Positions 24,916-63,443 are shown, counted from the first letter of the stretch. The stretch: 64,000 nt of DNA from an uncultured Kofleriaceae bacterium (GCA_964410875.1 CAYPIX010000005.1:4721-68720), one strand, 5' to 3'. Notes: generated by a model not told the origin, from the letters alone. Numbers and translations are program-made.

Positions 24916-25093
24916 TCGGTTCGTTTACCCGCCTAGCCGCGCCTTGCCAACCGATATCCATGGCCTTGGCTAGCCCGCCCGCGCCAAAGGTAAAGGTGCG
25001 CAAAGGTCTGATTTGTCCCGATCTAATTACCATTCACTTTAGCAATCGGTAACAATCCGCACACACGTGGTGGCCGCTGGTTTTGGGGGTTCG

Positions 25094-45317: not shown

Positions 45318-46478
45318 ATGGAAAGAACTCTCTCTCTCTGGGGCGTGGCTATTTTGGCCGCGTCTTGCGGCGGTGAAACCAGCACACCCTTACCCCCCAA
45401 CACCGGCGACGCACTTGCGACCTACGCCAGTATTGCAGCGGCAAACTACGAGGATTCCGTCACCGCAGCAAGGACCCTCGATCAAGCGGTTAACGCATTT
45501 ATCGCCACGCCTTCCTCGCTATCCCAGCAGGTAGCTCAAAGTGCATGGCTAGATTCCCGAGAGCCCTACCTAGAGACTGAAGTCTTCCGCTTCTATGACG
45601 GACCTATAGACAACCCGGCCAACGGTCCAGAAGGACTTATCAACGCATGGCCTCTTGATGAAGCATATATTGACTACGTCGCCGGAAACAACGGAGCCGG
45701 GATTATCAATGATGGGACGACGTCCATCGATATTGATACGTTGGTCAATCTAAATGAAAATGGCGGCGAAGAAAATATCGCGACCGGTTTTCACGCAATT
45801 GAATTTCTTCTTTGGGGGCAAGATCAAAATACTGCCGGTCCTGGTCAGAGACCAGCAACAGACTATAGTGTCGTAGGAGGGACCGCATCAAACCAAGCCA
45901 GACGAGCCCAATACCTAGCAACGGTATCAACTCTTCTTGTGGCAAACCTTCAATCGGTATCCGAGGAATGGTCAAATAACGGCGCCTACCGAGCGACATG
46001 GAGCACTATAGGCGATGAGGAAGGACTCCGACGCGTCCTGACGGGCATGATCATTCTCTCCGGTTTTGAAACTGGTGGCGAAAGACTGCAAACCGCTCTG
46101 GATTCAGGAGATCAAGAAGACGAGCATTCTTGCTTCAGTGACAATACCCACCGCGACATGATCCAAGATATTCAGGGCGTTCTCAATGTTTGGGACGGAA
46201 ACTACCTGCGTCTCGACGGCTCTCCAATAGCCGGTACCGGCATCGGTGATGTGGTTCGCGCAGCCGACCCAGCGCTAGCAGACACTCTCGACGCTCAAAT
46301 AGCTGTAAGCCTTGCCGCAGCTAACGCCTTAGTACCTCCATTCGATAACGAGATTGCTCCGGGCAATACGGAGGGCCGAGCACGGGTTCAATCTTTGATT
46401 GACGCTCTTCGTGCTCAAGAGCGTTCGCTTCAAGAGGTCTTTCGTCTCTTCGACCTTTCGATCCCTTCGCCGGAATAA
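45318..46478 (+). CDS. Imelysin-family lipoprotein (IrpA/peptidase M75-like)
   Basis: 386-aa ORF with lipobox LAASC and the imelysin signature GFHAIEFLLWGQD. Confidence 0.8.
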   Translation: MERTLSLWGVAILAASCGGETSTPLPPNTGDALATYASIAAANYEDSVTAARTLDQAVNAFIATPSSLSQQVAQSAWLDSREPYLETEVFRFYDGPIDNPANGPEGLINAWPLDEAYIDYVAGNNGAGIINDGTTSIDIDTLVNLNENGGEENIATGFHAIEFLLWGQDQNTAGPGQRPATDYSVVGGTASNQARRAQYLATVSTLLVANLQSVSEEWSNNGAYRATWSTIGDEEGLRRVLTGMIILSGFETGGERLQTALDSGDQEDEHSCFSDNTHRDMIQDIQGVLNVWDGNYLRLDGSPIAGTGIGDVVRAADPALADTLDAQIAVSLAAANALVPPFDNEIAPGNTEGRARVQSLIDALRAQERSLQEVFRLFDLSIPSPE

Positions 46479-46480
46479 GT

Positions 46481-47887
46481 TTGCTTCGAAAAAGAGTAAA
46501 GACCACCCTGTTTTGGGTTCCAATCGCCATTTTGGTTTTGGGTAGCTGTGAAAGTAGCAGTCAATTTTCGTCTTATCAGAATGGTGAAGAGTTACCCGGC
46601 GGCTCAACTACCAATACACTTTTGTTTGGCAGCAATGCCTTCACGCTTCCGGTGGAAAACATATCCGTTGAGAACGAACCGCTGTTTTTCTCGGGCAATG
46701 GTTTTTTTAATCAGCCTTGGGTGGAGGCGCCGGCAAGTACGGAATCGCGTGACGGGCTTGGCCCCCTATTCAATGCTCGTTCGTGTGCCGCCTGCCACTT
46801 CAAGGATGGCCGGGGAGCCCCACCGCTCACGCCAGAAGAGAGTTTTGTCGCGCTGCTTCTGCGGCTAAGTGTACCGGGCACCGATGAGCACGGAGGGCCC
46901 TTACCCGACCCATCTTACGGTGGACAGCTACAACCGTTTTCTAACCCCGGGGTTCCAACCGAAGGTACTCCTTTGTTGCGAACGTCCGTGGTCACAGGTC
47001 AGTTTTCCGACGGAACATCGTACGATCTGTTAGAGCCCAGCTACTCCGTAGCCGAGTTAGCCTACGGTCCTTTATCGGACGACATTCTGACCTCACCTCG
47101 TGTCGCGCCAGCAATGGTTGGTCTTGGACTCTTAGAGGCCATACCAGCGAGTGCTTTGGAATCCCTTGCCGATCCAAACGATAATGATGGAGATGGAATT
47201 TCCGGGCGAGTCAATCGAGTTTGGGATGTGGAGCGCCAGACAAGGGTGGTGGGCAGATTCGGTTGGAAAGCGGAACAACCGACCATCAAGCAACAATCCG
47301 CTGGAGCTTTCCTCGGCGATATTGGAATCACGACATCGCTCTTCCAAAGCCAAAGCTGCACCTCGGCCCAAGTAGATTGCAACTCCGCTATTAGTGGAGG
47401 CGCTCCTGAGCTTTCGAACGAACTATTGCAAAGAGTTGACGTTTACAGCCGCCTCCTCGCTGTTCCCGCCCGCGATCGTTTCAAAGGCGAAGACGTTCTT
47501 CGCGGCAAGGCACTCTTCTACGAAATAGGTTGCGCCGCGTGCCATACACCAAACCATGAAACGGGCGAGTCAGACCTTATAGAGCTAGAAAACCAGTCTA
47601 TTTGGCCATACACGGATCTCCTGCTCCATGACATGGGCCCAGAACTCGCTGACAACCGCCCCGTCTTTGATGCGTCGGGTTCGGAGTGGCGTACACCGCC
47701 TCTTTGGGGACTGCGTTTCTACACCACAGTCAATGGACACAACAGACTTCTTCACGATGGTCGGGCTCGAGGCGTTACTGAAGCGATTCTATGGCACGGT
47801 GGAGAGGCAAGCCAGTCAAAGACCGTATTCAAAGAGCTCGAAAAGTCCGACCGTAACTCCTTAGTCCATTTTGTGGAGTCTTTATGA
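46481..47887 (+). CDS. Di-haem oxidoreductase (DUF1111, putative peroxidase)
   Basis: 468-aa ORF with lipobox VLGSC, two CAACH motifs and WRTPPLWGL. Confidence 0.8.
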   Translation: MLRKRVKTTLFWVPIAILVLGSCESSSQFSSYQNGEELPGGSTTNTLLFGSNAFTLPVENISVENEPLFFSGNGFFNQPWVEAPASTESRDGLGPLFNARSCAACHFKDGRGAPPLTPEESFVALLLRLSVPGTDEHGGPLPDPSYGGQLQPFSNPGVPTEGTPLLRTSVVTGQFSDGTSYDLLEPSYSVAELAYGPLSDDILTSPRVAPAMVGLGLLEAIPASALESLADPNDNDGDGISGRVNRVWDVERQTRVVGRFGWKAEQPTIKQQSAGAFLGDIGITTSLFQSQSCTSAQVDCNSAISGGAPELSNELLQRVDVYSRLLAVPARDRFKGEDVLRGKALFYEIGCAACHTPNHETGESDLIELENQSIWPYTDLLLHDMGPELADNRPVFDASGSEWRTPPLWGLRFYTTVNGHNRLLHDGRARGVTEAILWHGGEASQSKTVFKELEKSDRNSLVHFVESL

Positions 47888-48897
47888 AACCCATAACTCT
47901 TTCGTTTTTGCTCTACACCCTTGGCTGTACCAGCAGTGCACCTACGACACAAACTGAACTGTTAAGTTCCTGGGGCCAAGAAGTGATCTTGCCGACTTAT
48001 TCTCTTTTCAAAGAACGGACCGACGAGCTCTCAACAACGACCTCTAGATTATGCGAGGGCCCCGACGACCAAAGGCTACAAGAGGCTCGAAACGCTTGGC
48101 TTCGAGCGCGAGCACCCTGGAAGCAAATGGAAGTATTCGCTTTCGGCCCTTACGAGGAAGCTCCACTTAGACTTGGGCCCAAAATCGACTTTTGGCCAGT
48201 ACGAGAAAGTTCTATCGTCTCTGTTCTGGCAGGAGTAAACACGATCGAGCCAAAAGCACTCGGAGCGCCAGCAAAGGGCCTTCCCGTAATTGAGTATTTA
48301 CTCTTCCGTGAAGGCGCCCTCGAAGAACTCATTGGTACTCCAAGATCTTGCCAATACCTTCAAGTTCTTACCGTAGACCTCAACGAAAACGCGTCTTCGA
48401 TGATAGACGCGTGGTCTCCATCGAAGGGCAACTACTTAGGCGAACTAAAAGACGCAGATGGAGGTATTTTTGATGACACACATGCGGCGCTCAGCGAGGT
48501 CGTTAACCGTATGGCTTTCACTGTGGAAAATATTCGTTCCGATAAACTCAGCGTCTCGGCTGAGGACGTAGAATCGAGATACAGTGGGCGCTCGATCGAC
48601 GATATACGGGACAATATCACTGGAATTGAAAGGCTCTACTTTTCTACAGGCGCTTCCCTGAGTAGCTATGCAAAAGAACGAAGCCACAATTTTGATGATC
48701 TAATGCGAGCTAACCTGGAGACCGTGCGGTTGGCCCTCGATCGTATTCCGGAACCGCTGACCTCCACCATGGCCAGTGATCCGGAAGCTATCGCACCAAG
48801 TTTGGATGCGCTTACATCTCTCCAGCGATTAGTGCAAGTCGACATCATTGGTGCTCTGTCCTTAGCGCCCGCCTTCAACGACAACGATGGTGATTGA
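47884..48897 (+). CDS. Imelysin-family lipoprotein (second copy)
   Basis: 337-aa ORF with lipobox YTLGC and the block GLPVIEYLLF. It overlaps the upstream gene by 4 nt. Confidence 0.7.
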   Translation: MKPITLSFLLYTLGCTSSAPTTQTELLSSWGQEVILPTYSLFKERTDELSTTTSRLCEGPDDQRLQEARNAWLRARAPWKQMEVFAFGPYEEAPLRLGPKIDFWPVRESSIVSVLAGVNTIEPKALGAPAKGLPVIEYLLFREGALEELIGTPRSCQYLQVLTVDLNENASSMIDAWSPSKGNYLGELKDADGGIFDDTHAALSEVVNRMAFTVENIRSDKLSVSAEDVESRYSGRSIDDIRDNITGIERLYFSTGASLSSYAKERSHNFDDLMRANLETVRLALDRIPEPLTSTMASDPEAIAPSLDALTSLQRLVQVDIIGALSLAPAFNDNDGD

Positions 48898-50185
48898 TGC
48901 ACACGCTTTCCGCACCTACTTAGAACGCCAAGTCGATGCAAGAGGGCTAGCTGCCTTTCGCCTTCTTTTTGGCCTTTTAATGTGCTTCGCTGTGGTGCGT
49001 TTCTGGAGCAAAGGGTGGATACATGAACTCTACATCAGCCCCTCCTACCATTTTTCATATTGGGGCCAAGACTGGATAAAACCGTGGCCAGGCATCGGGA
49101 TGTACATCCACTTTTCGGTGATGGGCCTGGCATCTCTTGCGCTTGCAGCAGGTCTTCGTCCACGTCTGTCAGCTGCTATTTTATTTTTTGCTTTCACATA
49201 CGTCGAACTAATAGACAAAGCGACGTACCTAAACCATTACTATCTAGTCAGCCTCCTTTCCCTCCTGCTCTGTTTTTTGCCGACAGGAAACGTTTGGGCC
49301 ATGACCTCCCCCCATCAGGGTAAATCGGGAACCGTACCGTTCTGGTGCTATCTCTTACTGCGAGCGCAGGTTGCCTTAGTGTATTTCTTTGCGGGCTTAG
49401 CAAAAGTCGGCCACGACTGGATATTGAACGCAGAGCCTCTCCAAACCTGGCTACAAGCCTATCTTGAGATACCTTTCATCGGCCAGTTGCTAACTCAGCG
49501 TTGGGTCGCCTATGCAATGAGTTGCTTCGGACTTTTTTTCGATCTTACGATTTTTATTTGGCTGCTTATTCCCAAGACCCGCCGTGTCGCTTACTTGGTA
49601 TGCGTGGTCTTTCACATATCCATCTGGTTACTTTTTCCCGTAGGGATTTTCTCGTGGGTCATGCTGATTTCCGCGACGCTATTTTTCGCGCCTGATTGGC
49701 CCAGATACCCGCACAACCAAGAAACTTACTCCGAACCTGTATCAGACAAAAAGTTTCCCTGGCCCGCCATCGCGGCTTCCGTCATTTTCCTCGCCCTTCA
49801 GATTGCTTTACCCCTTAGACACTATTTTTATCCCGGGACAACCAACTGGACCGAGAGAGGGTACCGTTTTGCCTGGCGCGTCATGCTCATTGAAAAAACC
49901 GGTCTCGTCGACTTCACTGTTCGCACCGAGAAAACTTCTTTTACTCACTACCCTAGACAGTCCCTCACGCCTTTGCAGGTCAAAATGATGGCAACCCAAC
50001 CCGACATGATTCAGCAGTACGCCCAACACCTTGCAGCTGAGTACCGTCTATTGGGCCATAGCAACGTGGTGGTTTACGCAAACTCCTGGGCGTCCCTCAA
50101 CGGTCGCCCTTCCCAAAAGCTTCTTCGGGATGACGCGGACCTGGTTACGGTACCGCTCTCAGAAGCACTGGTTCCTTTACGCTAA
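48887..50185 (+). CDS. HTTM-domain (vitamin K carboxylase-like) membrane protein
   Basis: 432-aa polytopic ORF whose N-terminus GLAAFRLLFGLLMCFAVVRFW...GWIHELY is typical of HTTM domains. Confidence 0.75.
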   Translation: MVIDAHAFRTYLERQVDARGLAAFRLLFGLLMCFAVVRFWSKGWIHELYISPSYHFSYWGQDWIKPWPGIGMYIHFSVMGLASLALAAGLRPRLSAAILFFAFTYVELIDKATYLNHYYLVSLLSLLLCFLPTGNVWAMTSPHQGKSGTVPFWCYLLLRAQVALVYFFAGLAKVGHDWILNAEPLQTWLQAYLEIPFIGQLLTQRWVAYAMSCFGLFFDLTIFIWLLIPKTRRVAYLVCVVFHISIWLLFPVGIFSWVMLISATLFFAPDWPRYPHNQETYSEPVSDKKFPWPAIAASVIFLALQIALPLRHYFYPGTTNWTERGYRFAWRVMLIEKTGLVDFTVRTEKTSFTHYPRQSLTPLQVKMMATQPDMIQQYAQHLAAEYRLLGHSNVVVYANSWASLNGRPSQKLLRDDADLVTVPLSEALVPLR

Positions 50186-50529
50186 TTTTCTCTTTGCGCT
50201 TGGCAACTTACGCATAAGCGAGACTCGGGCCGAGCCAGCAGCCGCCGGTGGTCAATAGCTTCTTCACAGTCACTGCAAAGACCAAAGTCCTCATCGTCAA
50301 TTCGTAGAAGGGTCTTTTCCACTTGAGCCAAACGATGCTGTTGCCCTTCCCGTCCCGCTTCAATCATCTTTTGTTGTTGGATCGCATCAATTCGAGAAAC
50401 TCGCCCCATAGCAGCTTGATCCAGCTCTACAGGCGCGGCGGAGGTGCTTGATATCGCCAGTGCAGCCCGCAGCTCCTCGCGTAGCTCTATCAGGCGCTGT
50501 TTGATCTCTTTTCTTCCGTTCTCTTCCAA
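50182..50529 (-). CDS. TraR/DksA-family C4 zinc-finger protein
   Basis: 115-aa ORF with a coiled-coil N-terminus and CSDCEEAIDHRRLLARPESRLCVSCQ. Confidence 0.85.
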   Translation of the reverse strand: MEENGRKEIKQRLIELREELRAALAISSTSAAPVELDQAAMGRVSRIDAIQQQKMIEAGREGQQHRLAQVEKTLLRIDDEDFGLCSDCEEAIDHRRLLARPESRLCVSCQAQREN

Positions 50530-50555
50530 AAAACGACCATACCACGCTCATTTAG

Positions 50556-53390
50556 TTAGCTCGCTCGCTCAAGAATCTCAGTATCCAGCGAAAGGTGCAG
50601 CGCCTTAAGTAAGTGTAAACGGCTCATGGGCTTCGGCAGAAAAACATCCGCACCGAGCTCCGCCGCAGCTCGGAAATGTTCTGAATCGATGGAGTTGCTA
50701 TGGACCACGATTGCCGAATTTGGATTGGTAGTCCGAAGTCTACGAACAACCGACAGACCCGACTCTTGTTCGCCTAGCTCTATATCGACGATGAACAAGT
50801 CAGCCACGAAGAGGCCTAAATCCTTAGCGCCAAAGAATCCGTGAACATCCACGAAATCTGCGAGTTTAGAGCTCGCAACCTGTTGAGCTAAGTATTTCTG
50901 ATAGATGGCCTCATCATCAATAACGGCGAGTCTTAACCCCTCTCCGTGCCCCTTCAATTTTGCCAACAAGAGATTCTCGGTATGTATTAGATCATCTTGT
51001 CTTTCAGGGGCTTTCAACACTCGACCCATAAAAGGCAGGTGACGGGAAACGACCTCTCGACACGACGACGGCAACCTCGTTGCAAGCTCGGTATCTTTTT
51101 GGCCCGCGGGCAACTGAAGCCAAAATTCTGCTCCCGTAGCCTTGCTCCGTGCCCCAATTTTTCCGCCGTGCGCTTCTACGATTTTTCTCGCTATTGCTAA
51201 CCCGAGCCCCGTTCCCTGACTTTTTCCTTTTGTAAAAAGCGGATCGAATACTAGTTCCAAGTCCCCGGGTTCGATGCCATGACCGGTATCGGAAACCACC
51301 ACTTCGACGAATTGCTTGTCACCCATCGTTCTATCCGACGTTTTTAATGAGACAGTTCCTCTATCTTTCATAGCCTCTATGGCATTGGTAACTAAATTAC
51401 TGATAACTCGGAGTAGCCGAACCTCATCCGCGAGAACTTCGTGCGTGTGGTCAAATTGGTAGGAAAAGTCCACATCACTATCGGCTTTAACCCGTGCAAC
51501 CTGGTGAACGGCAGCGTTGAGAACACTCGATAGAGGAATACTTGTAGAGATCACCTTTTCCTTTCGATCCATCTCCAAAACGTCTTCAATCAAGGCCTCC
51601 ACAGACGTTACCGACCGCTCTAGTTCTCCCTGAAACTCAGAAGCCAGTTCTTTAAACTCTGCTGGATTTTCGATTTGTCCAAGCGACTCGACTAATACTT
51701 TCAGGATCGAAAACGGTTGGCGGACATCATGCGCAAACATCCGGGTTAATCGCCCAATGGCCGCAGCACGCTGCTCGGCAGCATATCGCTGGCGCGAAAT
51801 TCGAATGGATTTAGCCGTAACAAAATGCGTTAACAGCATTCGCAATGCGGTCTGATGAAGAGCTTCAGTCGCTAAGTCCACGTCGCGCAATAGAATCCCC
51901 ACCGCAATTGGCTGTTCGACCTCGTCCGTGGTCGGACCTGTGCACCCAATAAACAATGCGCCATCGTCTCCAACGAGTCGAACATCGCCGTCTGTTGCAC
52001 TCGGCATAGAAAGGCTTTCACCTCCCAATTTCCTGAGCGCTGTAGCTCTAAGTTCTTCGGCACTACCAGAAACCAAAACACAATCGCTTGCAAACGTCCT
52101 CCCTAACGCAGAGATAAGGCGTTCTTCCGTAAATGGCAGTTCCAGGCTAAAACCAAAGCTAGAAGACAGAGCGCTGCTAAGTCGGTGACCGAGGCGGTAA
52201 AAAGTCGCTTCTTGAGGCGCCGATGTTGGTCTATCACAAGAAATAGCATAGCGGTGCGCGTTCTCGAACAACCATGACAGGTATCGTGTTCCCATTCCGC
52301 TACATGGCTGACAAAGGGCGGCGTCCACATTGTCCAAGCTTTTGACGTAGTAGGCTGGATTTCCATATTCGGCGCAATACCTTCGACCTTCCAAGACAGA
52401 TTCCGAGGCAGCCACACGATCTCCCAAAAGTAATTGCGTAAGAGCCACCAGACGAAAGTGAATCGTCCAATCCAGTGGGTCCTCGGTTTGGAGTGCGGCT
52501 TTACGAGACTGGCTAATTGCTGTGTTGGCCTCTTCTTCGCGACCTTCCGCGGCATGAAGAACGCTGAGCCAACCATAGATTTGTATGTGGTGCCGACTGG
52601 CGACTAAACCAAAACTCTGTGCAAAACAACGATCGATCAGCCGTCGCAGTGCCGCAAAATCGCCGTTTTCAAAAGCAACATTTTGAAGCGTAGTAAGAGC
52701 GAGCAAACGATAGAATGCGTTCTCCCCCGCGTAACGGGCGAGAAACAAGCGATGATAGTGATGGGATCTTGATGGGTTTCCGTTCATCGAGTACGCGATT
52801 GCTAGCAACGGGTAGTTCTGTGCCAAACATTCCGTGTCGTTTCGCTTATGAAGTACCGCAAGAGCCCTCCGAAGCAAAGGAATCCCAATCCAACCGCCAC
52901 CCCCGTATGCGTGCGAATACCCTAACCAAGACAGTGCCCTCGCTGTTTCAGTTTCATTTTCTGCACAGCAAAGCAAAAACAACGCATGGCTCCTGCATGT
53001 ACGAATATCTTTCCAGAAGTGCGCAAACTCAACAGCTCTTACATGAGTAAAATTTGCAAACGGACGTAGCCGCCAACGCAAACAAAATGCCATAAGGCCT
53101 ACACATATCCGGAAAGCTCTTCCACCCTTGGTAACGAACAAAAAGAGCGACCAAAGCCAAACAGAAACAACCGACAAATCTGGCAGGCCAATATGAATGG
53201 CAAGCTTGTCGGCCCACCGAATCGCATCGCCATGTTTCGAAACGATAGCGTACTCCGAGATGATTCGAGCCAATACGGTCGCCTGATCTCGAGCGTTCTT
53301 AGTATTGGTAGACAGTTCTTTATATTGCCTGATCCGCACCGCCGAGTCCGACTCGGACTCGACTTGTGTAAGCCGCGACTCGAAACTCAC
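50556..53390 (-). CDS. Hybrid sensor histidine kinase with a C-terminal receiver domain
   Basis: 944-aa ORF with H box FAHDVRQPFS, N box NLVTNAIEAM, G1 VSDTGHGI and G2 GTGLGLAIARKIVEAHGG. A receiver follows (VIDDE...IVDIELGE...FLPKP). The large N-terminal helical region is unrecognised. Confidence 0.9.
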   Translation of the reverse strand: MSFESRLTQVESESDSAVRIRQYKELSTNTKNARDQATVLARIISEYAIVSKHGDAIRWADKLAIHIGLPDLSVVSVWLWSLFLFVTKGGRAFRICVGLMAFCLRWRLRPFANFTHVRAVEFAHFWKDIRTCRSHALFLLCCAENETETARALSWLGYSHAYGGGGWIGIPLLRRALAVLHKRNDTECLAQNYPLLAIAYSMNGNPSRSHHYHRLFLARYAGENAFYRLLALTTLQNVAFENGDFAALRRLIDRCFAQSFGLVASRHHIQIYGWLSVLHAAEGREEEANTAISQSRKAALQTEDPLDWTIHFRLVALTQLLLGDRVAASESVLEGRRYCAEYGNPAYYVKSLDNVDAALCQPCSGMGTRYLSWLFENAHRYAISCDRPTSAPQEATFYRLGHRLSSALSSSFGFSLELPFTEERLISALGRTFASDCVLVSGSAEELRATALRKLGGESLSMPSATDGDVRLVGDDGALFIGCTGPTTDEVEQPIAVGILLRDVDLATEALHQTALRMLLTHFVTAKSIRISRQRYAAEQRAAAIGRLTRMFAHDVRQPFSILKVLVESLGQIENPAEFKELASEFQGELERSVTSVEALIEDVLEMDRKEKVISTSIPLSSVLNAAVHQVARVKADSDVDFSYQFDHTHEVLADEVRLLRVISNLVTNAIEAMKDRGTVSLKTSDRTMGDKQFVEVVVSDTGHGIEPGDLELVFDPLFTKGKSQGTGLGLAIARKIVEAHGGKIGARSKATGAEFWLQLPAGQKDTELATRLPSSCREVVSRHLPFMGRVLKAPERQDDLIHTENLLLAKLKGHGEGLRLAVIDDEAIYQKYLAQQVASSKLADFVDVHGFFGAKDLGLFVADLFIVDIELGEQESGLSVVRRLRTTNPNSAIVVHSNSIDSEHFRAAAELGADVFLPKPMSRLHLLKALHLSLDTEILERAS

Positions 53391-54160
53391 TTATCCGCCC
53401 AAATTTGCACGTATTGTAGTTCTCCCTGCTTTGCGAGCTTTGCCATGCGCCCAAACGCAAGTCGAAACTGCCTGAGAACCGCTGCGTTACCTTCATACGA
53501 CGGTAGAGAAATGGTCCGAAGGTAATCGCTAAACCCGTCGAAAACCTGGGAAGACAGATCTTGGATTTCGACATTCTTGTACCCACACGTTGTTAGCTCA
53601 CTATTGTAGGTGTCCAAAGACCAAGCGTGACCAAGAGCGGGACGCAAAAGAGGGTTGTTTCGCACATTGTCTTCGTTTGTCACGCAGATTTCCAAAAGCA
53701 ACATGCTCTTTGCCCGTTTAGCCACGTTACGATAAAGGTTTCGTTTATTTTCAAAATGAAAAGCTGCTTCTACAGACATAAACAGGTCCGCTTTCCAATC
53801 CTCTTTGGCGTGCTCCTCAACCGAACCATATTGATACTCCGTGTTTCCGACACCCTGGTTTAAAGCACGGGCGGCATCAATTTGTTTTTGGGATACGTTC
53901 ACCCCTGTGTAGTGAGCATTTGGAAACACCTCCGCAACCAATTGCCGGCTTCCGCCCCACCCACTACCTGCATCTACGACTACTTGAATCGTATGATTGG
54001 AGGCACGGACTCTATTAAGGCCATTGAGTACCAGCGTTTCTTGCGCACTCCGCAATGTCTGAGACGGCCACAGCCCCATATTCATATGCCCAGAGAGAGA
54101 AGGACAAAGGGTCCGGTACGAATGCTCTGTTCCTTCATAGTAAGCGGCGGCTTGATTCAT
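53387..54160 (-). CDS. Class I SAM-dependent methyltransferase
   Basis: Start at MNQAAAYYEG forms an ATGA overlap with the upstream stop. It has MNMGLW and the SAM motif VVDAGSGWGGS. Confidence 0.8.
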   Translation of the reverse strand: MNQAAAYYEGTEHSYRTLCPSLSGHMNMGLWPSQTLRSAQETLVLNGLNRVRASNHTIQVVVDAGSGWGGSRQLVAEVFPNAHYTGVNVSQKQIDAARALNQGVGNTEYQYGSVEEHAKEDWKADLFMSVEAAFHFENKRNLYRNVAKRAKSMLLLEICVTNEDNVRNNPLLRPALGHAWSLDTYNSELTTCGYKNVEIQDLSSQVFDGFSDYLRTISLPSYEGNAAVLRQFRLAFGRMAKLAKQGELQYVQIWADK

Positions 54161-54957
54161 GCTGCGGCCCTCCAATTGGTTCGTTCTCGTAATTTTCTCA
54201 ACGCGTGGACAAGACACCGTTGGGTTACTTTCTTTTGCCTGGCAACGACACCTTGGCTAGAAAACAAACTCACTTCTTTATGCCCACCGTCAATCCCAAA
54301 CTGTTGCAGAAGCGGCGCAGGAGAAAGCAAGCGCCCTAAATTCTTCGTCGCCACTCGCGTAGCGTCCATGACCTCATCACATGTCATGCGCCCATCAAAA
54401 ACCAGGTCCGTCAAGATCTGAAGGCCATTGTCCTGGTGTCTTGATTCTTCGAAGAGTATCTGCCGATCGAGCGATGCAGTTGAAGTGCCAGAAAAGGCTG
54501 ATGCTCTAGCGGAGAACATGCCCATCGCTAGGCTTTCCAATACTATAAAAGCAGTAACTGCGTTTTCTTCTACCGAACCCGAGGCAACAAATGCCTGATG
54601 AAGGTCCTCTGGTTTCTTGTTCGAAAAAGAGACTGGCAAACGGTCCAGCAGGCGTTTGTATGCAGCCACGTGCCGTGCCTCGTCGATCGACTGTTCTGCC
54701 AAAGCGGGAATCGCGTCATATGATCCCAAGCGCGACGTCATCTCTCCGAGCAGCTGCAACCCGACTAGTTCAAAGAGATAGGTCTCGTTGATAAAGAATG
54801 TGTATTCGGCAACGGCAACCTCTTCTGGATCGGCGAACTTCTTTCGAGTCGAGAACGAATGAAGCAACGTAGAATTCTCTACGAGGTCTTTCATTGGTGG
54901 CACCTCAATCGAATCAACTAATCCAGAGTATGGATTCTCTGCGGCTAAGAACTCCAT
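54157..54957 (-). CDS. Ferritin-like di-iron carboxylate protein (putative oxygenase)
   Basis: 266-aa ORF with two E...EXXH pairs: FELVG...DEARH and LESLA...EESRH. Confidence 0.65.
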   Translation of the reverse strand: MEFLAAENPYSGLVDSIEVPPMKDLVENSTLLHSFSTRKKFADPEEVAVAEYTFFINETYLFELVGLQLLGEMTSRLGSYDAIPALAEQSIDEARHVAAYKRLLDRLPVSFSNKKPEDLHQAFVASGSVEENAVTAFIVLESLAMGMFSARASAFSGTSTASLDRQILFEESRHQDNGLQILTDLVFDGRMTCDEVMDATRVATKNLGRLLSPAPLLQQFGIDGGHKEVSLFSSQGVVARQKKVTQRCLVHALRKLRERTNWRAAA

Positions 54958-54960
54958 CGG

Positions 54961-55368
54961 CTACTCCTCCCAAAAAAGAGGTCGTACCCAATCCGGGCAG
55001 GCGATGGGTTTGCCCGTGGCGGTGGATACAACAGCGAAGCGAAGAGTGCCGGCGCTCACAGTCTTCCCTTCTCTAGTCATTTCGAACGGAACACTAAGAA
55101 CAGAACCTTCGAGACTTTCCACCCAAGATTTACAGTCCACGTCGCCAACACCTATCAGAGGCCTTTTGAAATGCATGTCTGCATGGGACAGATAAAAACC
55201 AACTCCTTTTTTTGCTATCGAAGCAAAGTCCACATCTAGAACTTCTTTCGCGAAGAGAAAACGCGAGGAGATGATGTAGTCCAGGTAGAGCGACGAGTTT
55301 ACGTGCCCGTACGGATCAAGATCTGCGAAACGGACCCCGATATTCTTTTGATATATAATTGGTTTCAT
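54961..55368 (-). CDS. Hotdog-fold acyl-CoA/acyl-ACP thioesterase (YbgC/4HBT-like)
   Basis: 135-aa ORF with VRFADLDPYGHVNSSLYLDYI. Confidence 0.8.
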   Translation of the reverse strand: MKPIIYQKNIGVRFADLDPYGHVNSSLYLDYIISSRFLFAKEVLDVDFASIAKKGVGFYLSHADMHFKRPLIGVGDVDCKSWVESLEGSVLSVPFEMTREGKTVSAGTLRFAVVSTATGKPIACPDWVRPLFWEE

Positions 55369-55790
55369 ACAGCCTCCCTAGATGCAGTGCATCGTCCCAA
55401 TAAAACATCCATTGGAACGGGTCCTTTTCCAACGACCAAATCGAACGCCTCGAGCTCGTGGGGGAAAAAATGCCCATTCGAGCTAAGAACTAATCGGGTA
55501 CTAGGAGATACACTACGAAGCTGTCGAGCAAGACCGATGCCAGTCTGTTTCTGGTCACGGAAACGGTTGTCGATAACCACGGCATCTAGCCTCAGCAGGA
55601 AGTTCCTGTCGCCTGTAGCCCGCTCCCAAAAATCCGATGGGGAATCGAAACAATGCAATACGGCCTTACCTCGCATACGCAAGAGCCAAGCTATCTGGAA
55701 CGCACGCGAGTCCTCGACTAGCGCGAGTTCTAGGTCCTCTCCATCCCGGAACATAGAAAACGGGTAACATGCAGTGTTGGGGTACTCCAC
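55365..55790 (-). CDS. Single-domain CheY-like receiver protein
   Basis: 141-aa ORF with LALVED, AVVIDNRF (phospho-acceptor Asp position), VLSSNG and VVGKGP matching receiver landmarks. Confidence 0.6.
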   Translation of the reverse strand: MEYPNTACYPFSMFRDGEDLELALVEDSRAFQIAWLLRMRGKAVLHCFDSPSDFWERATGDRNFLLRLDAVVIDNRFRDQKQTGIGLARQLRSVSPSTRLVLSSNGHFFPHELEAFDLVVGKGPVPMDVLLGRCTASREAV

Positions 55791-55916
55791 TAACAGGGAC
55801 TTCCGTGAACCAACGCTTTGGTTCTAGGCTGGACGTATTCGTCCACCGCGCCTGGACCATTCTGACCACGTATTTTTTTGGCTACAAATGCAAAGCAGTC
55901 CGTTACTTTCTAGTGG

Positions 55917-56822
55917 ATGGGACTCAAACGGTACGACGCATCTAGTGAACCTGGAGCAATGAGCTCAGCTCTAGAACAAGACGGCGCAGTCGTCATACGT
56001 GATCTACCTCATACGAAATCAGTCGCACCAGCAGGAGACGAACTAGCGAAGTGGTTGTCTCAACCTTATGACCAAAGCCCGATGGGCAATAACCCTTTTA
56101 CCGGTATGCAGACCCTTCGAACCTCGGGGCTCATCGCCAAATCTCCTGGATGTCGTTTACTTGCCACAGACCCAACTGTTCTAAAAGTAGTGGACCAAAC
56201 TCTCGGGTCACTATGCTCTCGATTTCAACTGAGTTTCACCCAGGCCATCAAAATTGGCCCCGGCCAACCTGCACAACCTCTTCACCGTGACACGACAATG
56301 TATCCGCTAAAAAGACCTGGGCCCGAGGTTTTCGTCAATGTGATCTGGGCCCATAGCGACTTCACAGAAGAAAACGGTGCCACGCGCTTTATACTCGGCA
56401 GCCATTTGTGGGACGACAGCCGACGCCCCGGAAAAGAAGACGCTATCGTACAGGCGACCATGAACAAAGGAGACGCTGTGGTGTATTACGGCTCGGTTCT
56501 CCACGGCGGCGGGGCAAACACCAGTACGGATGCAATACGCCTAGGACTTGCTTTCGGATACACCCTTGGTTGGCTTAGACAGGAGGAAAACCAATACTTG
56601 GCCGTTCCCCCAGAGCTTGCAAAAACGTTTCCCGCTTCACTGCAGAGGCTGCTTGGCTACGCGGAACACTTCCCATTTATCGGTTGGCATGAAGGCCAAG
56701 ACCACGATGTGTTCCGCGGTGGTGAATTCAAAAAGAAATATGATGCAGGAACAATCCGGGGTGGCGAGTCAAAGTCCTTGACGGAGATTCTCACCGCGGG
56801 GGTTCCAGAGGACGGAAAATAA
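55917..56822 (+). CDS. PhyH-family Fe(II)/2-oxoglutarate dioxygenase
   Basis: 301-aa ORF with the facial triad PLHRDT ... SVLHGGGAN. It is divergent from the receiver/thioesterase operon. Confidence 0.8.
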   Translation: MGLKRYDASSEPGAMSSALEQDGAVVIRDLPHTKSVAPAGDELAKWLSQPYDQSPMGNNPFTGMQTLRTSGLIAKSPGCRLLATDPTVLKVVDQTLGSLCSRFQLSFTQAIKIGPGQPAQPLHRDTTMYPLKRPGPEVFVNVIWAHSDFTEENGATRFILGSHLWDDSRRPGKEDAIVQATMNKGDAVVYYGSVLHGGGANTSTDAIRLGLAFGYTLGWLRQEENQYLAVPPELAKTFPASLQRLLGYAEHFPFIGWHEGQDHDVFRGGEFKKKYDAGTIRGGESKSLTEILTAGVPEDGK

Positions 56823-56972
56823 CCAGAGTTTTGCCTCGCCGCGTCAATCCCAACAATACCAACTGCATGAAAAAAGCCATTACGAGTTAGTGCGAGCTGT
56901 CACGTAAAAACTGGGTGTCCATGCTACTACGTCCGCCACTAGGGCCCGACCTAAGGGAAGGTTTGGTTCCGA

Positions 56973-57584
56973 ATGGAGGAAAATATGAGGATGTACGAAC
57001 AAGGCGCCGCGCTTGCGCTTGCAACATGCGCGGAAGAAATTGCCCACGAGCTGGCAAACCCTGTAGCTGCGCTAGGAGTGCTCTTAGACGAAATCTCTGA
57101 GAAGAGCGTCGTTGACCAAGAGCTACACGACTTAGCGCGCGTAGAGTTCAACCGTCTGCGGGCACTCGTCGGAGACATGCGGTCGGTCGTGTCCCCTCCC
57201 CTCGCCGTCGAACTAGTTCCACTTGCGCACTTCATCTCTGAACTGGGATGCGATGTGAAGATTGGGGAACTTTGTCAATCCAACCCGGTGACTCATCCAA
57301 AAGGTTGGAGGGAACAAATTGCGAGACCAATCGCTGATTTATTGAATCGAAGCCGATTAGACTGGAAGCCGACTCTTTCTGTCGGCACGAAAACAACTCT
57401 AGACGTGGGCGCGGACGTAAGCAAACTGAAAGACAAGTTCGATGCTCTGCCTTGGCAGCAAGGCGCCCTCCGGTTAAGCGTCGCCCGTAGAATGCTTCGC
57501 GCTCACGGACACCAAGTCCGCATTGAAACGTCAGATGCTTTCTGCGGGATAAGGCTTCAGTTCAAAACGGAGAAGCAGTCATGA
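56973..57584 (+). CDS. Truncated histidine-kinase-like protein (DHp with H box, degenerate ATP-binding domain)
   Basis: 203-aa ORF with H box IAHELANPVAAL. I could not find G1/G2 boxes. It overlaps the NtrC-type gene by 4 nt. Confidence 0.55.
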   Translation: MEENMRMYEQGAALALATCAEEIAHELANPVAALGVLLDEISEKSVVDQELHDLARVEFNRLRALVGDMRSVVSPPLAVELVPLAHFISELGCDVKIGELCQSNPVTHPKGWREQIARPIADLLNRSRLDWKPTLSVGTKTTLDVGADVSKLKDKFDALPWQQGALRLSVARRMLRAHGHQVRIETSDAFCGIRLQFKTEKQS

Positions 57585-58942
57585 AAGTTCTAGTAGTAGA
57601 CGATAGCAACACCGCTCGAGCACTCTTGACTAGAGTGATCGCCCCATTGGGAGGCGTAGAGGTGCATGAAGCAGCCGGGTTAGCGTGCGGACAAGCGGCC
57701 ATTGAGACCACAGATTTCGATGCAGCATTTATCGACCTGCGTTTGCAACGTGACCCGGAAAACAGAGATGGTCTTAATCTCGTCCAAGTTGCTTTGCGCG
57801 CAGGGGTTACTCCGATCATTGTATCTGGGTTTAGTGACATGTCGGAGATACGCGCGGCCATGCGTTCTGGCGCCTACGACTACCTCCTAAAAGAAGAGCT
57901 TTGTCCGGATATGGTGTGGCCTCTTTTGGAGACTCTTCGTTCCCGACGCGCACTTGAGGCCGAAGTTCGGACGCTGCGAAGTCAAACTCGAGAAATGCCG
58001 ATCATACCAGAGTTAATCGGCTCATCGCGCCATATGCAGGTGCTTTCTCAGAGGATTGAACGTGTAGCACTGTCTGATCGCCCTGTACTCGTTACTGGTC
58101 CTACCGGTTCCGGCAAGGAGCTAGTTGTCCGCGCTATCCATGCACTTGGCCGCAACCCACAAGATCCTGTCATTGACCTAAACTGTGGAGCTCTGCCTGC
58201 AGCGCTCATAGAGTCTCAGCTTTTTGGTCACGAAAAAGGCGCTTTCACTGGTGCGGATAAAAAACACGACGGCTTTTTTACCACCGTCGGTACAGGAACC
58301 CTCTTTCTCGATGAAATTGGAGAACTCCCGTTAGAGTTGCAAGCAAAGCTCCTCAGGGTATTGGAATCTCGTACCTTCAGACCGGTTGGCGGAAACCACA
58401 ATCTAGAGTTCAGAGGCCGCGTTGTCGCGGCTACTCATGTCGATTTGCCTAAGAGAGTGCAAGCAGGAGAATTCCGCGAGGACCTATATTACCGATTGAA
58501 TGTTCTTGAGCTCGCAGTGCCAAGCCTCGCGAAAAGAGCAGAGGATATTCCCGAGTTGGTTTCCCATTTTTCGGAAGCACTTGAACGCCCCCTAACTTTC
58601 ACGGAAGACGCCATATCGTTACTTCAAAATTCCGAGTGGCCCGGAAACGTTCGGCAGTTGAGAAACACCATAGATCGAATATCTGTTTTTGCTCCGGCGG
58701 GACCAGTTAATGCCGAAGTCATGAAAGAAATAATAAATCTTGAAGATTCTAAAGACCCAACCGATAGCATCAAGCTACTAGCGCGTCGAGTTTTGAACCG
58801 AGAAGGTGACGACAAGCTGAAACTCATGGAGGGTGCACTGGTTGAAGAAGCTCTAGAACTAGCGGAAGGCAACAAATCCGCTGCCGCTCGAATTCTCGGA
58901 GTGCACCGCAAGGTCGTGGAACGCCGTTCGTTCGCGAGTTAA
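57581..58942 (+). CDS. Sigma-54-dependent response regulator (NtrC family)
   Basis: 453-aa ORF with a receiver (VVDDS...FIDLRL), AAA+ motifs GPTGSGKELV, GAFTGA and ESRTFRPVGG, and a C-terminal HTH AAARILGVHRKVV. Confidence 0.95.
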   Translation: MKVLVVDDSNTARALLTRVIAPLGGVEVHEAAGLACGQAAIETTDFDAAFIDLRLQRDPENRDGLNLVQVALRAGVTPIIVSGFSDMSEIRAAMRSGAYDYLLKEELCPDMVWPLLETLRSRRALEAEVRTLRSQTREMPIIPELIGSSRHMQVLSQRIERVALSDRPVLVTGPTGSGKELVVRAIHALGRNPQDPVIDLNCGALPAALIESQLFGHEKGAFTGADKKHDGFFTTVGTGTLFLDEIGELPLELQAKLLRVLESRTFRPVGGNHNLEFRGRVVAATHVDLPKRVQAGEFREDLYYRLNVLELAVPSLAKRAEDIPELVSHFSEALERPLTFTEDAISLLQNSEWPGNVRQLRNTIDRISVFAPAGPVNAEVMKEIINLEDSKDPTDSIKLLARRVLNREGDDKLKLMEGALVEEALELAEGNKSAAARILGVHRKVVERRSFAS

Positions 58943-59607
58943 CCAATCTTTTTAGGGCGAGTGTTCGCTGGAGCGGTTTTTCGGCGAGGTCTACGCGGCC
59001 TGCTTTTGGCGGCACGAGAAAACACCTGATCAAAGGTCGAGATCGCAGACTCGTCCTCTATGGAAAACCGTAGGGATGGGTTTTGAGGCCGAAGCTCCGG
59101 TCTCTTCGACGTGTCTAATGTAACCACAAACTTTTGCGTTCCCTCTCGCGATACGGGGATATGAGCAACACCGTGTGTATCTGTGGTCCCGAGCCTGACA
59201 CCATCTATCAGTATGGGTATGTTCGCAATTCTCGTCCGAACGACTAGTGCCACGGTACGTTGGTTGCGGCGACACAAGAACCGTACCTTGAGAGGCAACT
59301 CGTGACCGGACTCCAACGCTCGCTGCCGCCGCAATCTCACTTCCAAATTTTCGCTGTCCTGAGAAAAACCAGACGGACATTCCACCGAAGCCAGCAGTTT
59401 TTCTCCCACTTTTCCGGTAACGGCCACTTCCCAAGCCCCGTCTGAACCTGTTTGTCCAACCTTCTCGCCAAGGCGAACACCTGCGCTTCCTACTGCTTTT
59501 CCTCGTTTATCTTGCACTAGAACTGAGACATGAAACTCGTCCGCGGATTTATCGCTGCCCGGCGCACATGCAGCCAACAAAAGTAAAAAGCCTATAGAAC
59601 GCGACAT
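58939..59607 (-). CDS. Lipoprotein with a PEGA-like segment
   Basis: 222-aa ORF with lipobox LLAAC. IPILIDGVRLGTTDTHG resembles a PEGA motif. The tail is basic. Confidence 0.5.
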   Translation of the reverse strand: MSRSIGFLLLLAACAPGSDKSADEFHVSVLVQDKRGKAVGSAGVRLGEKVGQTGSDGAWEVAVTGKVGEKLLASVECPSGFSQDSENLEVRLRRQRALESGHELPLKVRFLCRRNQRTVALVVRTRIANIPILIDGVRLGTTDTHGVAHIPVSREGTQKFVVTLDTSKRPELRPQNPSLRFSIEDESAISTFDQVFSRAAKSRPRRPRRKTAPANTRPKKIG

Positions 59608-60104
59608 ACATCCTCATTTCGTGCTTGGCAGTTACGCTTCTTCTTCGTTATTTCCTGCAGTACCGTCTCGATCGCTGGATTCGAGTCTCTTGCATGAAGT
59701 TCGCTATAATACCTGATTGCGTCGTCGGACCGGCCGGATAGTAATGCATCAACAGCTTTCGCTTCCAAAGCTGCATCTGTGCCCGATGCGGGCGTTTTGA
59801 GCTCCTCTACTTTGATGTCTCGTTGAAGCCCCGAGCCTTTCACTGGAATACCTTCGACAGGATGTACTTTTGTAGCTCCTTCCAAGGTCCCTTGTTCTCC
59901 TAATTTGACCTTCCGCATTTCGGCAACTGCTCCTGTCATATGAAAAGAAAACAGCGCGCTGAAAACAACAAGTCCGAAAGATAAGAGCCAGCGCGGGTAA
60001 TTTCTTGCGTGCCGCGGGGGGTGTTTCGCTGCTACCACGACCGTCTTCTCGTCATCTCCAACTTCTTCAGTCCCTAAAAACGTAGGCGGATTGGGGAAAT
60101 TCAT
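59592..60104 (-). CDS. Single-pass membrane protein, unknown family
   Basis: 170-aa ORF with one hydrophobic helix (WLLSFGLVVFSALFSF). It overlaps both neighbours. Confidence 0.5.
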   Translation of the reverse strand: MNFPNPPTFLGTEEVGDDEKTVVVAAKHPPRHARNYPRWLLSFGLVVFSALFSFHMTGAVAEMRKVKLGEQGTLEGATKVHPVEGIPVKGSGLQRDIKVEELKTPASGTDAALEAKAVDALLSGRSDDAIRYYSELHARDSNPAIETVLQEITKKKRNCQARNEDVCRVL

Positions 60105-61120
60105 GCCTTGCCCTTCCCGCCTTGTCGTTTGCAGACTAGGTCACCTTCGTATCTCGAGAAAACATCTTCCATCGTGTACCCCTTACCCAATTGATACTCA
60201 TCAACCCGTGTAATGTGAGTGACACATCGAGTTCCGTCATCGAACCTCGCGACCAAAACGATCAGATCCACGGCAGATCCTATTTGGCTACGAAGGGCGT
60301 CTAAAGGCAGTTCTACATCACTCATCAGCGCCATGGTTTCGAGTCGACTCAAAACATCTCTTGGATACGTTGCGTGGAGAGTGGAAAGGCAGCCACCGTG
60401 GCCTGATGTCATCGCTTGCAATAAATCCAGGGCTTCTCCGCCCCGAATTTCGCCAACTACGACTCGGTCTGGTCTCATTCTAAGGCTCGCCCTGAACAAA
60501 TCTCTAACAGAGATAGGGTTGCCGTTGGTCGCAGTGCAAGGCCTTGCTTCCAAAGCTACAACGTGATCATGCTGTAAATTCAATTCTCTCGCGTCCTCGA
60601 TAGTCACGATTCGTGCCCCCTCAGGAATAAAACCAGACAACGCATTCAAAAATGAGGTTTTCCCCGATCCAGTACCACCAGCAACGATGACATTCTTTTT
60701 CCCCGCTACAGCTCTTCGTAGAAAGTCTGCAGCTTCCTTGGTCAAGGTACTTTTTTCGACAAGAGAACTCATAGAGAGCACGCTTTTCGAAAAACGGCGA
60801 ATTGAAACCTGCGGCCCATCTGGGGCCACTGGTGGGATCAGAGCTTCCACTCGCGAACCGTCGGGCAGTCGACCCTCGAGGATAGGGGACGAAGCATCGA
60901 GCTTCCTTCCAGTGTATTGAGCAAGGTTTCGCAACGCGGCTTCCAACGTAAAATCGCTCTCGAAAGCAGCCTCTGTTTTCTCAATCCGCCCACACTTTTC
61001 TATTCGTATGTCTTTTGATCCATTGATCATCACCTCACTAACGGATTGGTCCTCTAACAACGATTTGATCGGAGCAAAGAACTCCATTAGCGTCCGTTCG
61101 AAAATAACGTCGGGAATCAT
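60101..61120 (-). CDS. cpaF: CpaF/TadA-family pilus assembly ATPase (short form)
   Basis: 339-aa ORF with Walker A AGGTGSGKTSF, TIEDARE and RMRPDRVVVGEIRGGEA. Confidence 0.9.
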   Translation of the reverse strand: MIPDVIFERTLMEFFAPIKSLLEDQSVSEVMINGSKDIRIEKCGRIEKTEAAFESDFTLEAALRNLAQYTGRKLDASSPILEGRLPDGSRVEALIPPVAPDGPQVSIRRFSKSVLSMSSLVEKSTLTKEAADFLRRAVAGKKNVIVAGGTGSGKTSFLNALSGFIPEGARIVTIEDARELNLQHDHVVALEARPCTATNGNPISVRDLFRASLRMRPDRVVVGEIRGGEALDLLQAMTSGHGGCLSTLHATYPRDVLSRLETMALMSDVELPLDALRSQIGSAVDLIVLVARFDDGTRCVTHITRVDEYQLGKGYTMEDVFSRYEGDLVCKRQGGKGKA

Positions 61121-63442: not shown

Positions 63443-63443
63443 T

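Follow-up and report, generated by a model that had tools for sequence, protein, structure and literature searches.

The gene cassette described here lies within a 64,000-nucleotide (nt) stretch of DNA from an uncultured Kofleriaceae bacterium (GCA_964410875.1, CAYPIX010000005.1:4721-68720), the whole of which we refer to as the window, and it combines the genes of a predicted phosphorelay with those of a small set of enzymes. In the direction of transcription, the minus-strand run encodes a probable divergent single-domain receiver (REC*; 55365-55790, with the ATG at 55754 as the probable start according to the ortholog alignment), a hotdog acyl-coenzyme A (CoA)/acyl carrier protein (ACP) thioesterase of the YbgC/FadM type (54961-55368; Pfam 4HBT_2, 7.7e-12), a putative oxygenase of the ferritin-like di-metal (di-iron) kind, representing a small new family (54157-54957) and recognized by invariant E/ExxH pairs and an AlphaFold2 model, a class I S-adenosylmethionine (SAM)-dependent small-molecule methyltransferase (53387-54160; Pfam Methyltransf_25/11, 1e-9), a soluble hybrid histidine kinase of 944 amino acids (aa) (50556-53390; Pfam HisKA, HATPase_c and Response_reg), and, 26 nt downstream of the kinase gene, a DksA/TraR C4 zinc-finger protein (50182-50529; Pfam zf-dskA_traR, 2e-10). 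On the plus strand, a divergently transcribed gene for a PhyH-family Fe(II)/2-oxoglutarate (2OG) dioxygenase (55917-56822; Pfam 2e-31) is followed by genes for a small DHp protein of 203 aa with a degenerate ATPase domain (56973-57584; HisKA 4e-5) and an NtrC-type sigma-54 activator response regulator with the domain order REC-AAA+-HTH_8 (57581-58942).

An earlier note on this DNA had listed seven open reading frames (ORFs), their domain classes and the five junctions of the minus-strand run, and all of these agree with the ORF table and with the Pfam and NCBIfam searches, the receiver and di-iron assignments having required additional evidence. From the ORF coordinates, the receiver and thioesterase genes overlap by 4 nt, 3 nt separate the thioesterase gene from the di-iron gene, the next two junctions are 4 nt overlaps (ATGA, then GTGA), and 26 nt lie between the kinase and DksA/TraR genes; the ATGA overlap follows from starting the methyltransferase at the ATG at 54160, the mechanical ORF reaching 54217. 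The genes that the note had placed at 50182-56822 are present there, but these limits do not hold for the system as a whole, which extends beyond them because both of the larger architectures described below include the DHp protein and the sigma-54 activator (56973-58942).

Conservation and architecture of the cassette

A lack of co-conservation had been named in the earlier note as one result that would refute its reading, but the same partners do recur in other metagenomic loci, each di-iron family member with enough flanking DNA adjoining them in one of three architectures with varying flanks. All of the cassette loci are metagenomic, and the cassette is known from uncultured bacteria only. 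Genes for the thioesterase, the di-iron protein and a kinase with a tetratricopeptide repeat (TPR)-like sensor stand together, with stop and start codons overlapping or nearly touching, in the window, L002, L003, L004, L006, the P0010 contig, L089, L090 and L172-L175. Because the arrangement recurs in at least 11 independent metagenomic loci, it is far beyond what chance would produce.

The first architecture (type 1) is found in the window, L002, L003, L006 and L007, and also in L001 and L004, whose contigs are cut. Its order is a free divergent receiver, the thioesterase, the di-iron protein, the methyltransferase and a kinase of ~950 aa with a canonical receiver, the thioesterase being absent from L007. 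In the window, L001, L002 and L003, a PhyH gene is present in a divergent or adjacent position. The window, L002, L003, L006 and L007 have an adjacent sigma-54 activator gene, which a small DHp gene precedes wherever that flank is present (the window, L003 and L007). The second architecture (type 2; the P0010 contig, L089 and L090) has a divergent PhyH gene and a co-directional string in which genes for the thioesterase, di-iron protein and methyltransferase precede those for a kinase of 940 aa, a kinase-like protein of 244 aa and a sigma-54 activator, in that order. Across these two larger architectures, the activator gene is adjacent in all eight loci with enough context. On the P0010 contig (JGI 3300050821), two sigma-54 activator genes (97-1539 and 10400-11815) flank the cassette, and a carboxyl-transferase gene lies between PhyH and the upstream activator.

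The third architecture (type 3; L172-L175 and probably L088) has the order extra 4HBT_2 protein, alpha/beta hydrolase, 57 aa ORF, thioesterase and di-iron protein, followed directly by a kinase of 1128 aa, and the methyltransferase, PhyH and activator are all absent from it. The gene after the di-iron gene in L088 was considered as a divergent methyltransferase and ruled out; by eye, it resembles the N-terminus of the cassette kinase. Type 3 is the commonest variant, since the same L172 protein is indexed in 43 collection blocks. In L172 (8001-12000), the cassette occupies a GC trough (47% versus 52-58% in the flanks) beside a RES-Xre toxin-antitoxin pair, which suggests horizontal acquisition.

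The first small ORF of the minus-strand run gave no Pfam match at E<=0.01, and PF00072 matched all four receiver orthologs only weakly, below threshold (E 0.21 in the window and 0.0042 at best). Profile-profile comparison of its orthologs with receiver domains (hhalign) gave a probability of 94.4% and an E-value of 9e-8, and in the ortholog alignment every signature residue is kept, from the acidic pair and the phospho-acceptor Asp to the Ser and the Lys-Pro. We therefore classify its product, from these sequence features, as a probable divergent receiver. In L002 (1482-2081), the gene is clearly present, although the source gene finder missed it in favor of a 60 aa ORF on the other strand. 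In the type 2 kinases, the divergent receiver is the sole C-terminal receiver (hhalign 99.8%, E 2e-28 in L089), and in the type 3 kinase of L172 it is the second, terminal one (98.7%, E 2e-16). Its fusion to the kinase in types 2 and 3, in Rosetta-stone fashion, ties the free receiver of type 1 to the kinase as well.

With these fusions, sequence comparison defines the deep core of the cassette as the hotdog thioesterase, the di-iron protein, a TPR-like kinase of ~940-1130 aa and the divergent receiver, while the methyltransferase, PhyH, the DHp protein and the sigma-54 activator belong to the two larger architectures. As one architecture has neither methyltransferase nor PhyH, the invariant chemistry comprises the thioesterase and the di-iron protein only; the four-enzyme set of the earlier note is present in the window but is not a constant of the cassette. 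The inclusion of the DksA/TraR protein as a member was not upheld, since no counterpart is found 3' of the kinase gene in L002, L003, L004, L006, L089, L090 or L172.

The di-iron protein and the accompanying enzymes

The di-iron protein of the window has 266 aa and a sub-threshold match to Ferritin_2 in Pfam. In 23 family members with identities down to 27%, E63, E93xxH96, E141 and E171xxH174 do not vary, and the AlphaFold model is an all-helical bundle (predicted local distance difference test score, pLDDT, 89.8). The proteins among the Foldseek matches listed for this model are ferritin-like, and almost all are di-metal oxidases. R2lox proteins head the list by E-value, and the structural neighbors R2lox, ADO, PaaAC and the AurF-like VlmB are all weak ones (E ~3e-3 to 3e-2, TM-score 0.4-0.6, 12-16% identity). 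With both E...ExxH pairs and the helical bundle present, the modeled protein falls within the ferritin-like di-iron carboxylate oxygenase superfamily.

The window protein gave no match to AurF (PF11583) at E<=0.01 and no Pfam match to ADO (PF11266) or the acyl-ACP desaturases (Foldseek TM-scores of 0.46-0.52 for ADO and 0.38-0.40 for desaturases, E>1e-2). It matched 0 families in NCBIfam, and nothing significant was found among the sequences of solved structures. The link to AurF is a transitive one: PF11583 is present in nine of 10 sampled distant relatives and in two genome relatives that are 25-34% identical. A word-indexed search of 5.8 billion proteins returned nine di-iron homologs, and an exhaustive HMMER search of 1.84 billion representatives returned 14 di-iron clusters at E<1e-30, with only partial matches among the weaker ones. 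When 185,579 species genomes and JGI metagenome contigs were scanned for family-specific peptide patterns, namely those invariant in the nine-sequence di-iron alignment A1, no true member of the di-iron family was found, and the scans yielded only AurF-type relatives of ~360 aa at 24-34% identity. Because the scans gave only such distant relatives, we regard the protein, by sequence, as a new and compact offshoot of the AurF-like branch of ferritin-like oxygenases, outside curated families and remote from AurF-type enzymes.

The thioesterase scores well above the 4HBT_2 cut-off (46.2 bits versus 25.5), and its catalytic motif RFxDxDxxGHV (D16, D18, G21, H22 and V23) is invariant in six orthologs. 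Its profile matches the solved thioesterases 5byu, 2fuj and YbaW, the closest solved proteins being small acyl-CoA thioesterases. The methyltransferase reaches best scores of 15-25 bits in NCBIfam, versus cut-offs of 185-600, and 21.7 bits against CMAS, below the cut-off of 27. Its profile is nearest to PMT, MitM, TleD and mycolic-acid methyltransferases (1e-8 to 1e-5), which include N-, O- and C-types, so that the acceptor atom is not fixed by these matches. It has ~28 close homologs, after which E-values jump from 1e-51 and 4e-34 to 1e-16. Judging from their homologs, the families of the di-iron protein and the methyltransferase are small and essentially do not occur outside the cassette. 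The earlier note had named ubiquinone or lipid modification as a housekeeping role that they might turn out to have; no assignment to Coq7, UbiG/UbiE, CFA synthase or another such enzyme emerged, NCBIfam giving no match for the former and far sub-threshold ones for the latter.

The PhyH protein, which is 60% identical to its L090 ortholog, scores 110 bits versus a cut-off of 22, and H123-x-D125, H196 and R208 (the 2OG-binding Arg) are invariant; because the Asp of the triad is present, the site is not of the halogenase type. Among solved structures, the protein comes nearest to DhiD (2e-39) and to fungal meroterpenoid dioxygenases, phytanoyl-CoA hydroxylase itself reaching only E 9e-5. A search of the literature on DhiD, 5BYU and 8ZYB gave nothing relevant. 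Since catalytic residues are kept throughout, the enzymes of the cassette are predicted to be working ones.

The kinase and the predicted phosphorelay

In the 944 aa kinase, Pfam detected HATPase_c (1.7e-25) and Response_reg (1.3e-10), and HisKA at 7e-6 (26.4 bits, just below the cut-off of 26.9). H554, the G2 box and D869 are invariant. With an H-box, N and G boxes and a C-terminal receiver in its sequence, the protein is assigned to the hybrid histidine kinases; the DHp and CA domains span aa 546-762 (nt 51105-51755) and the receiver aa 822-931 (nt 50598-50927), both placed by Pfam on the minus strand. The N-terminal 540 aa match nothing in Pfam or among the sequences of solved structures. 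An AlphaFold model of aa 1-540 (pLDDT 79.7) shows ~20 paired helices, a small alpha/beta domain and a helix running into the DHp domain, and on this model and the Foldseek matches the minus strand encodes a TPR-like sensor at ~aa 15-385 (nt 52236-53348) and the small alpha/beta domain at aa 420-505 (nt 51876-52133). Foldseek matches to the sensor are TPR superhelices, including the TPR domain of LGN, and the bacterial matches with the best coverage are the Rap/NprR peptide receptors and MalT domain III; the modeled likeness to Rap, NprR and MalT is a resemblance of fold only. The type 3 kinase, which has a weak Pfam match to TPR_MalT, is homologous to the window kinase over its whole length (27% identity, E 1e-81), and the sensor region recurs only in kinases of the cassette.

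The idea of a membrane-bound sensor was rejected. On the Kyte-Doolittle scale, no kinase ortholog has a hydrophobic 19-mer above 1.3, and the single segment of the window kinase (1.68), a lone hydrophobic stretch at aa 67-87, is specific to the window and not conserved. Since every component is predicted to be soluble, a ligand would have to reside inside the cell or be able to cross the membrane.

The DHp gene and the activator gene, which follow PhyH on the plus strand, overlap by 4 nt. Pfam did not detect HATPase_c in the 203 aa DHp protein. In the ortholog alignment, the H-box His (H25) and the N-box Asn are kept, and the G1/G2 ATP-lid boxes are lost in the window and L003 and present in L089 and L090. 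A retained His combined with lost ATP-lid boxes is the signature of histidine phosphotransferases such as ChpT and Spo0B, and the 203 aa protein is, from its alignment, a probable histidine phosphotransferase, while the small protein of L089 and L090, having kept its ATP-binding boxes, may be a true kinase. The activator contains Sigma54_activat, REC and HTH_8 domains (Pfam 3.5e-63, 7.9e-11 and 2.9e-7), the composition of the NtrC family, and is 59% identical to the activator that follows the kinase in L089, making it as conserved as any part of the system. Given the phosphotransferase signature of the DHp protein, the most economical route for the phosphate would lead from the kinase His to a receiver Asp, then to the His of the 203 aa protein and finally to the activator Asp.

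Promoter region and neighboring genes

The divergent promoter region contains, near its middle, the perfect palindrome TGGACGTATTCGTCCA (55830-55845), a candidate operator or activator site. Nowhere else in the 64 kb window does this sequence have a perfect match. The corresponding intergenic region has a perfect copy of the motif in L006 and copies with one mismatch each in L002 and L003. In L089 and L090, TGGCAC-N5-TTGC is conserved ~45-60 nt upstream of PhyH, and the sequence between and around the half-sites varies, which thinly suggests, from two sequences, sigma-54 control of PhyH in type 2. A TGGCTAC-AAA-TGCA site in the divergent region of the window was rejected, its spacing being 2 nt too short for a -24/-12 promoter. 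We also rejected as promoter evidence the sigma-54-like TGGCATCGGTCTTGCT at 55527-55542 inside the receiver ORF, which has counterparts in L002, L006 and L007; it is probably a coding artifact, since its GG-N10-GC falls on the conserved Gly-Ile-x-Leu-Ala codons of the receiver. Matches to the sigma-54-like pattern across the window are at the chance level (39 found versus 32 expected), a generic promoter and terminator scan of 49900-59200 gave counts at or below chance, and an Rfam scan of the whole window gave no match.

Beside the cassette, the plus-strand run at 45318-50185 encodes an imelysin, a di-heme oxidoreductase (DHOR), a second imelysin and an HTTM/vitamin-K-carboxylase-like membrane protein, and has the look of a conserved cluster with an envelope or iron-related role that is not connected with the cassette. 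Because the stop codons of the HTTM gene and the convergent DksA/TraR gene overlap by 4 nt (50182-50185), there is no room for a terminator between the two units. On the minus strand at 60101-63502, just past the activator, lies a Tad or type IV-like pilus or secretion locus, a candidate target of the activator, with successive genes for a T2SSE-type ATPase, a TPR protein, an unknown protein and a membrane protein of the T2SSF type. Further away (25067-27523), the window encodes an 818 aa multiheme cytochrome with c7, c3 and MtrC/MtrF-like domains, which hints at a metal-respiring or deltaproteobacteria-like host; gene content as a whole would very tentatively suggest a Myxococcota- or Bdellovibrionota-like affinity.

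Flanking genes vary between loci and are often natural-product genes, as in L089, L003, L007 and L006. In L089 (10538-18348), a type II polyketide synthase (PKS) set with two ketosynthases, an ACP, a cyclase, O-methyltransferases and a BBE-type oxidase adjoins the cassette activator and converges on it. Directly downstream of the kinase gene in L003 (8778-9536) lies a gene of the AfsA family (gamma-butyrolactone synthase-type), and L007 has a nonribosomal peptide synthetase (NRPS) condensation domain near the cassette. L006 (6099-12195) and L090 (9357-13846), which differ in architecture, share a downstream set of two AMP-binding ligases, Amidohydro_2 and a Rieske/VanA oxygenase. In L006, there are in addition DeoC-aldolase and DHQS-II genes, a pairing familiar from 3-amino-4-hydroxybenzoate synthesis (GriI/GriH).

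Discussion

We propose, as the best reading, that the cassette is a self-contained signaling module that makes and senses its own signal, with a hypothetical product and ligand, and we consider the chances of this reading to be about evenly balanced. It is favored because the enzymes appear intact, the enzyme families and the soluble kinase are specific to the cassette, the relay is a dedicated one, and the neighborhoods change from locus to locus. Further points in its favor are the receiver fusions, the recurring palindrome, the conserved element upstream of PhyH in L089 and L090, the resemblance of the sensor to ligand-binding Rap/NprR and MalT sensors, the natural-product genes beside several loci and the precedent of phcBSRQ. 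Because the association of the enzymes with the kinase is conserved and translationally coupled, the enzymes can be read as generating the ligand of the kinase. In this scheme, the thioesterase would take an acyl thioester (CoA or ACP) from primary metabolism, and the di-iron enzyme would oxidize the acyl group with O2. In the architecture of the window, the methyltransferase and PhyH would then tailor the product to a small, probably hydrophobic and membrane-permeant molecule. The soluble kinase would bind this molecule through its TPR-like and small alpha/beta region and autophosphorylate, and the phosphate would pass in a His-Asp-His-Asp order from the kinase to its receiver, with the divergent receiver as a partner or sink, and on to the DHp protein and the activator. 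The activator would turn on its targets, plausibly including the divergent promoter of the cassette and neighboring, often secondary-metabolite, genes. It is plausible that the substrate is lipid-derived, as the thioesterase, the lipid-binding structural neighbors of the di-iron protein and the CMAS-like matches suggest, and an aryl-CoA or another acyl-CoA is equally compatible.

Several points weigh against this proposal. Genes for an exporter, an acyl-activating enzyme and a carrier protein are absent from the cassette, as are genes for a reductase or ferredoxin that would serve the di-iron site. The presumed pathway is not fixed, since the L172 type has neither methyltransferase nor PhyH and L007 has no thioesterase. 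TPR domains bind proteins or peptides more often than lipids, and no convincing sigma-54 promoter (-24/-12) was found in the divergent region of the window (55755-55916). The product, the ligand and the phenotype are hypothetical and expression is putative, all of the loci being metagenomic.

A signal synthase encoded with its sensor kinase is a known kind of system, which the cassette would assemble from uncharacterized protein families. In the diffusible signal factor (DSF; rpfF/rpfC/rpfG) and alpha-hydroxyketone (cqsA/cqsS and lqsA/lqsS/lqsR) systems, the gene for the synthase of a fatty-acyl-derived signal lies beside that of a sensor kinase, in some cases a hybrid one, and RpfF has thioesterase activity on acyl-ACP. 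These systems differ from the cassette in having crotonase-fold or pyridoxal phosphate-dependent synthases, membrane kinases and no O2-dependent chemistry. Phosphorelays of the His-Asp-His-Asp kind with a small DHp protein and a terminal response regulator are represented by CckA-ChpT-CtrA and Spo0F-Spo0B-Spo0A. The cassette resembles these in its hybrid kinase, its small DHp protein with a degenerate ATPase-like domain and its terminal regulator, although only generic domains are related and the terminal regulator of the cassette is NtrC-type. The closest analog in concept is the quorum-sensing operon phcBSRQ of Ralstonia, in which the methyltransferase PhcB, the kinase PhcS, the kinase-receiver protein PhcR and the receiver PhcQ are associated with the signal methyl 3-hydroxymyristate or -palmitate (PMC8578825). 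Both systems combine a SAM methyltransferase, which finishes the signal in phc and would do so in the cassette, with a sensor kinase, a second kinase-like or receiver protein and a lone output-less receiver (a probable one in the cassette), and the phc signal is acyl-derived. In contrast to the cassette, however, phc has no thioesterase, di-iron enzyme or PhyH, and its output is the LysR regulator PhcA rather than a sigma-54 activator; the cassette kinase is soluble with a TPR-like sensor. The likeness to phc extends to operon logic only. The earlier note's remark that no described pathway has such a composition agrees with our literature search on the gene combination, which gave nothing relevant, but phcBSRQ is a precedent for the concept.

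Precedents also exist on the enzymatic side, since AurF-type di-iron N-oxygenases make diffusible signals, namely PvfB in the pvf system and HamC in the ham/valdiazen system (PMC10194917, PMC5878181). Like these, the cassette protein is a predicted ferritin-like di-iron oxygenase, and its nearest relatives carry the AurF Pfam domain. It differs in its length (266 aa versus ~300-360 aa), in scoring below the AurF threshold, and in having no NRPS or amine-bearing substrate evident, and the pvf and ham clusters, unlike the cassette, have no linked kinase. With R2lox, ADO and PaaAC, which bind lipid or acyl-CoA ligands, it shares a four-helix-bundle di-metal site of the form E/ExxH/E/ExxH.

Among the rival explanations, the one that survives best, though we judge it unlikely, is a substrate-responsive conversion or detoxification operon, in which the kinase would sense a compound entering the cell, such as a fatty acid or an aromatic one activated to its CoA ester, and the enzymes would oxidize, de-esterify and methylate that compound as the output of the relay rather than as the origin of its signal. 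The best NCBIfam likenesses of the kinase and the activator are to AtoS/AtoC, the controllers of a catabolic operon, and the fold of the di-iron protein also matches the phenylacetyl-CoA epoxidase PaaAC, which acts alongside a hotdog thioesterase in a degradation pathway. In L006 and L090, moreover, PaaK-like AMP-binding ligases, an amidohydrolase and a Rieske oxygenase adjoin the cassette. However, three or four enzymes with no ligase, ring-cleavage enzyme, beta-oxidation enzyme or transporter do not make a catabolic pathway, and the flanks are not conserved across loci. The enzyme families are also absent outside the cassette, and translational coupling ties the enzymes to the sensor instead of leaving them in a regulated operon of their own.

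The conserved active site of the thioesterase, together with the methyltransferase and PhyH, points to small-molecule chemistry, and the nearest sequence relatives of the di-iron protein, the AurF-type oxygenases, are catalysts. Both observations argue against an accessory sensor, a decidedly unlikely arrangement in our view, in which the di-iron protein would report O2, iron, redox state or nitric oxide and control the kinase through contact with its TPR region, while the thioesterase would provide or take away a bound acyl ligand. Parallels for such kinase partners exist in H-NOX, NosP and hemerythrin, and a hemerythrin gene follows the kinase gene in L002. An accessory sensor would fit an invariant core that includes only the thioesterase, the di-iron protein, the kinase and the receiver, the direct abutment of the di-iron and kinase genes in L172 and L088, the typical binding of protein or peptide partners by TPR superhelices, and the fact that no reductase partner is encoded. 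It would also fit the position of R2lox ("R2-like ligand-binding oxidase") at the top of the Foldseek matches by E-value; a fatty acid stays bound to R2lox during purification, and the protein is not known to turn over a substrate.

That the cassette is an ordinary biosynthetic fragment, its enzymes tailoring the product of a neighboring cluster and its two-component system serving as a cluster-situated regulator, is very improbable. Natural-product genes do adjoin several loci and the closest solved relatives of PhyH are natural-product tailoring enzymes, but no biosynthetic cluster lies beside the cassette in the window, L004 or L172, the neighboring clusters are of unrelated classes (type II PKS, NRPS and AfsA), and the cassette keeps a composition of its own whatever its neighbors.

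Returning to the proposal of a module that makes and senses its own signal, we suggest tentatively, and with some doubt, that it may represent a new class of autoregulator. In this class, an acyl-derived signal would be made by the di-iron family and a thioesterase, variably with a methyltransferase and PhyH, and would be read inside the cell by a TPR-type hybrid kinase acting through a four-step phosphorelay on a sigma-54 activator, with secondary-metabolite or behavioral genes of uncultured bacteria as the output. The general importance of the cassette is limited, because the family is rare and found only in metagenomes. It is nevertheless a compact test case, consisting of three or four soluble enzymes and one soluble sensor that are easily synthesized. 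If the enzymes do make the ligand of the kinase, they would add a new chemical class and a new type of synthase, a thioesterase with a di-iron oxygenase, to the few signal systems in which synthase and kinase are encoded together, and would provide a first function for a TPR-type cytoplasmic kinase sensor. The cassette would then also offer a handle for switching on the silent natural-product clusters that lie beside it.

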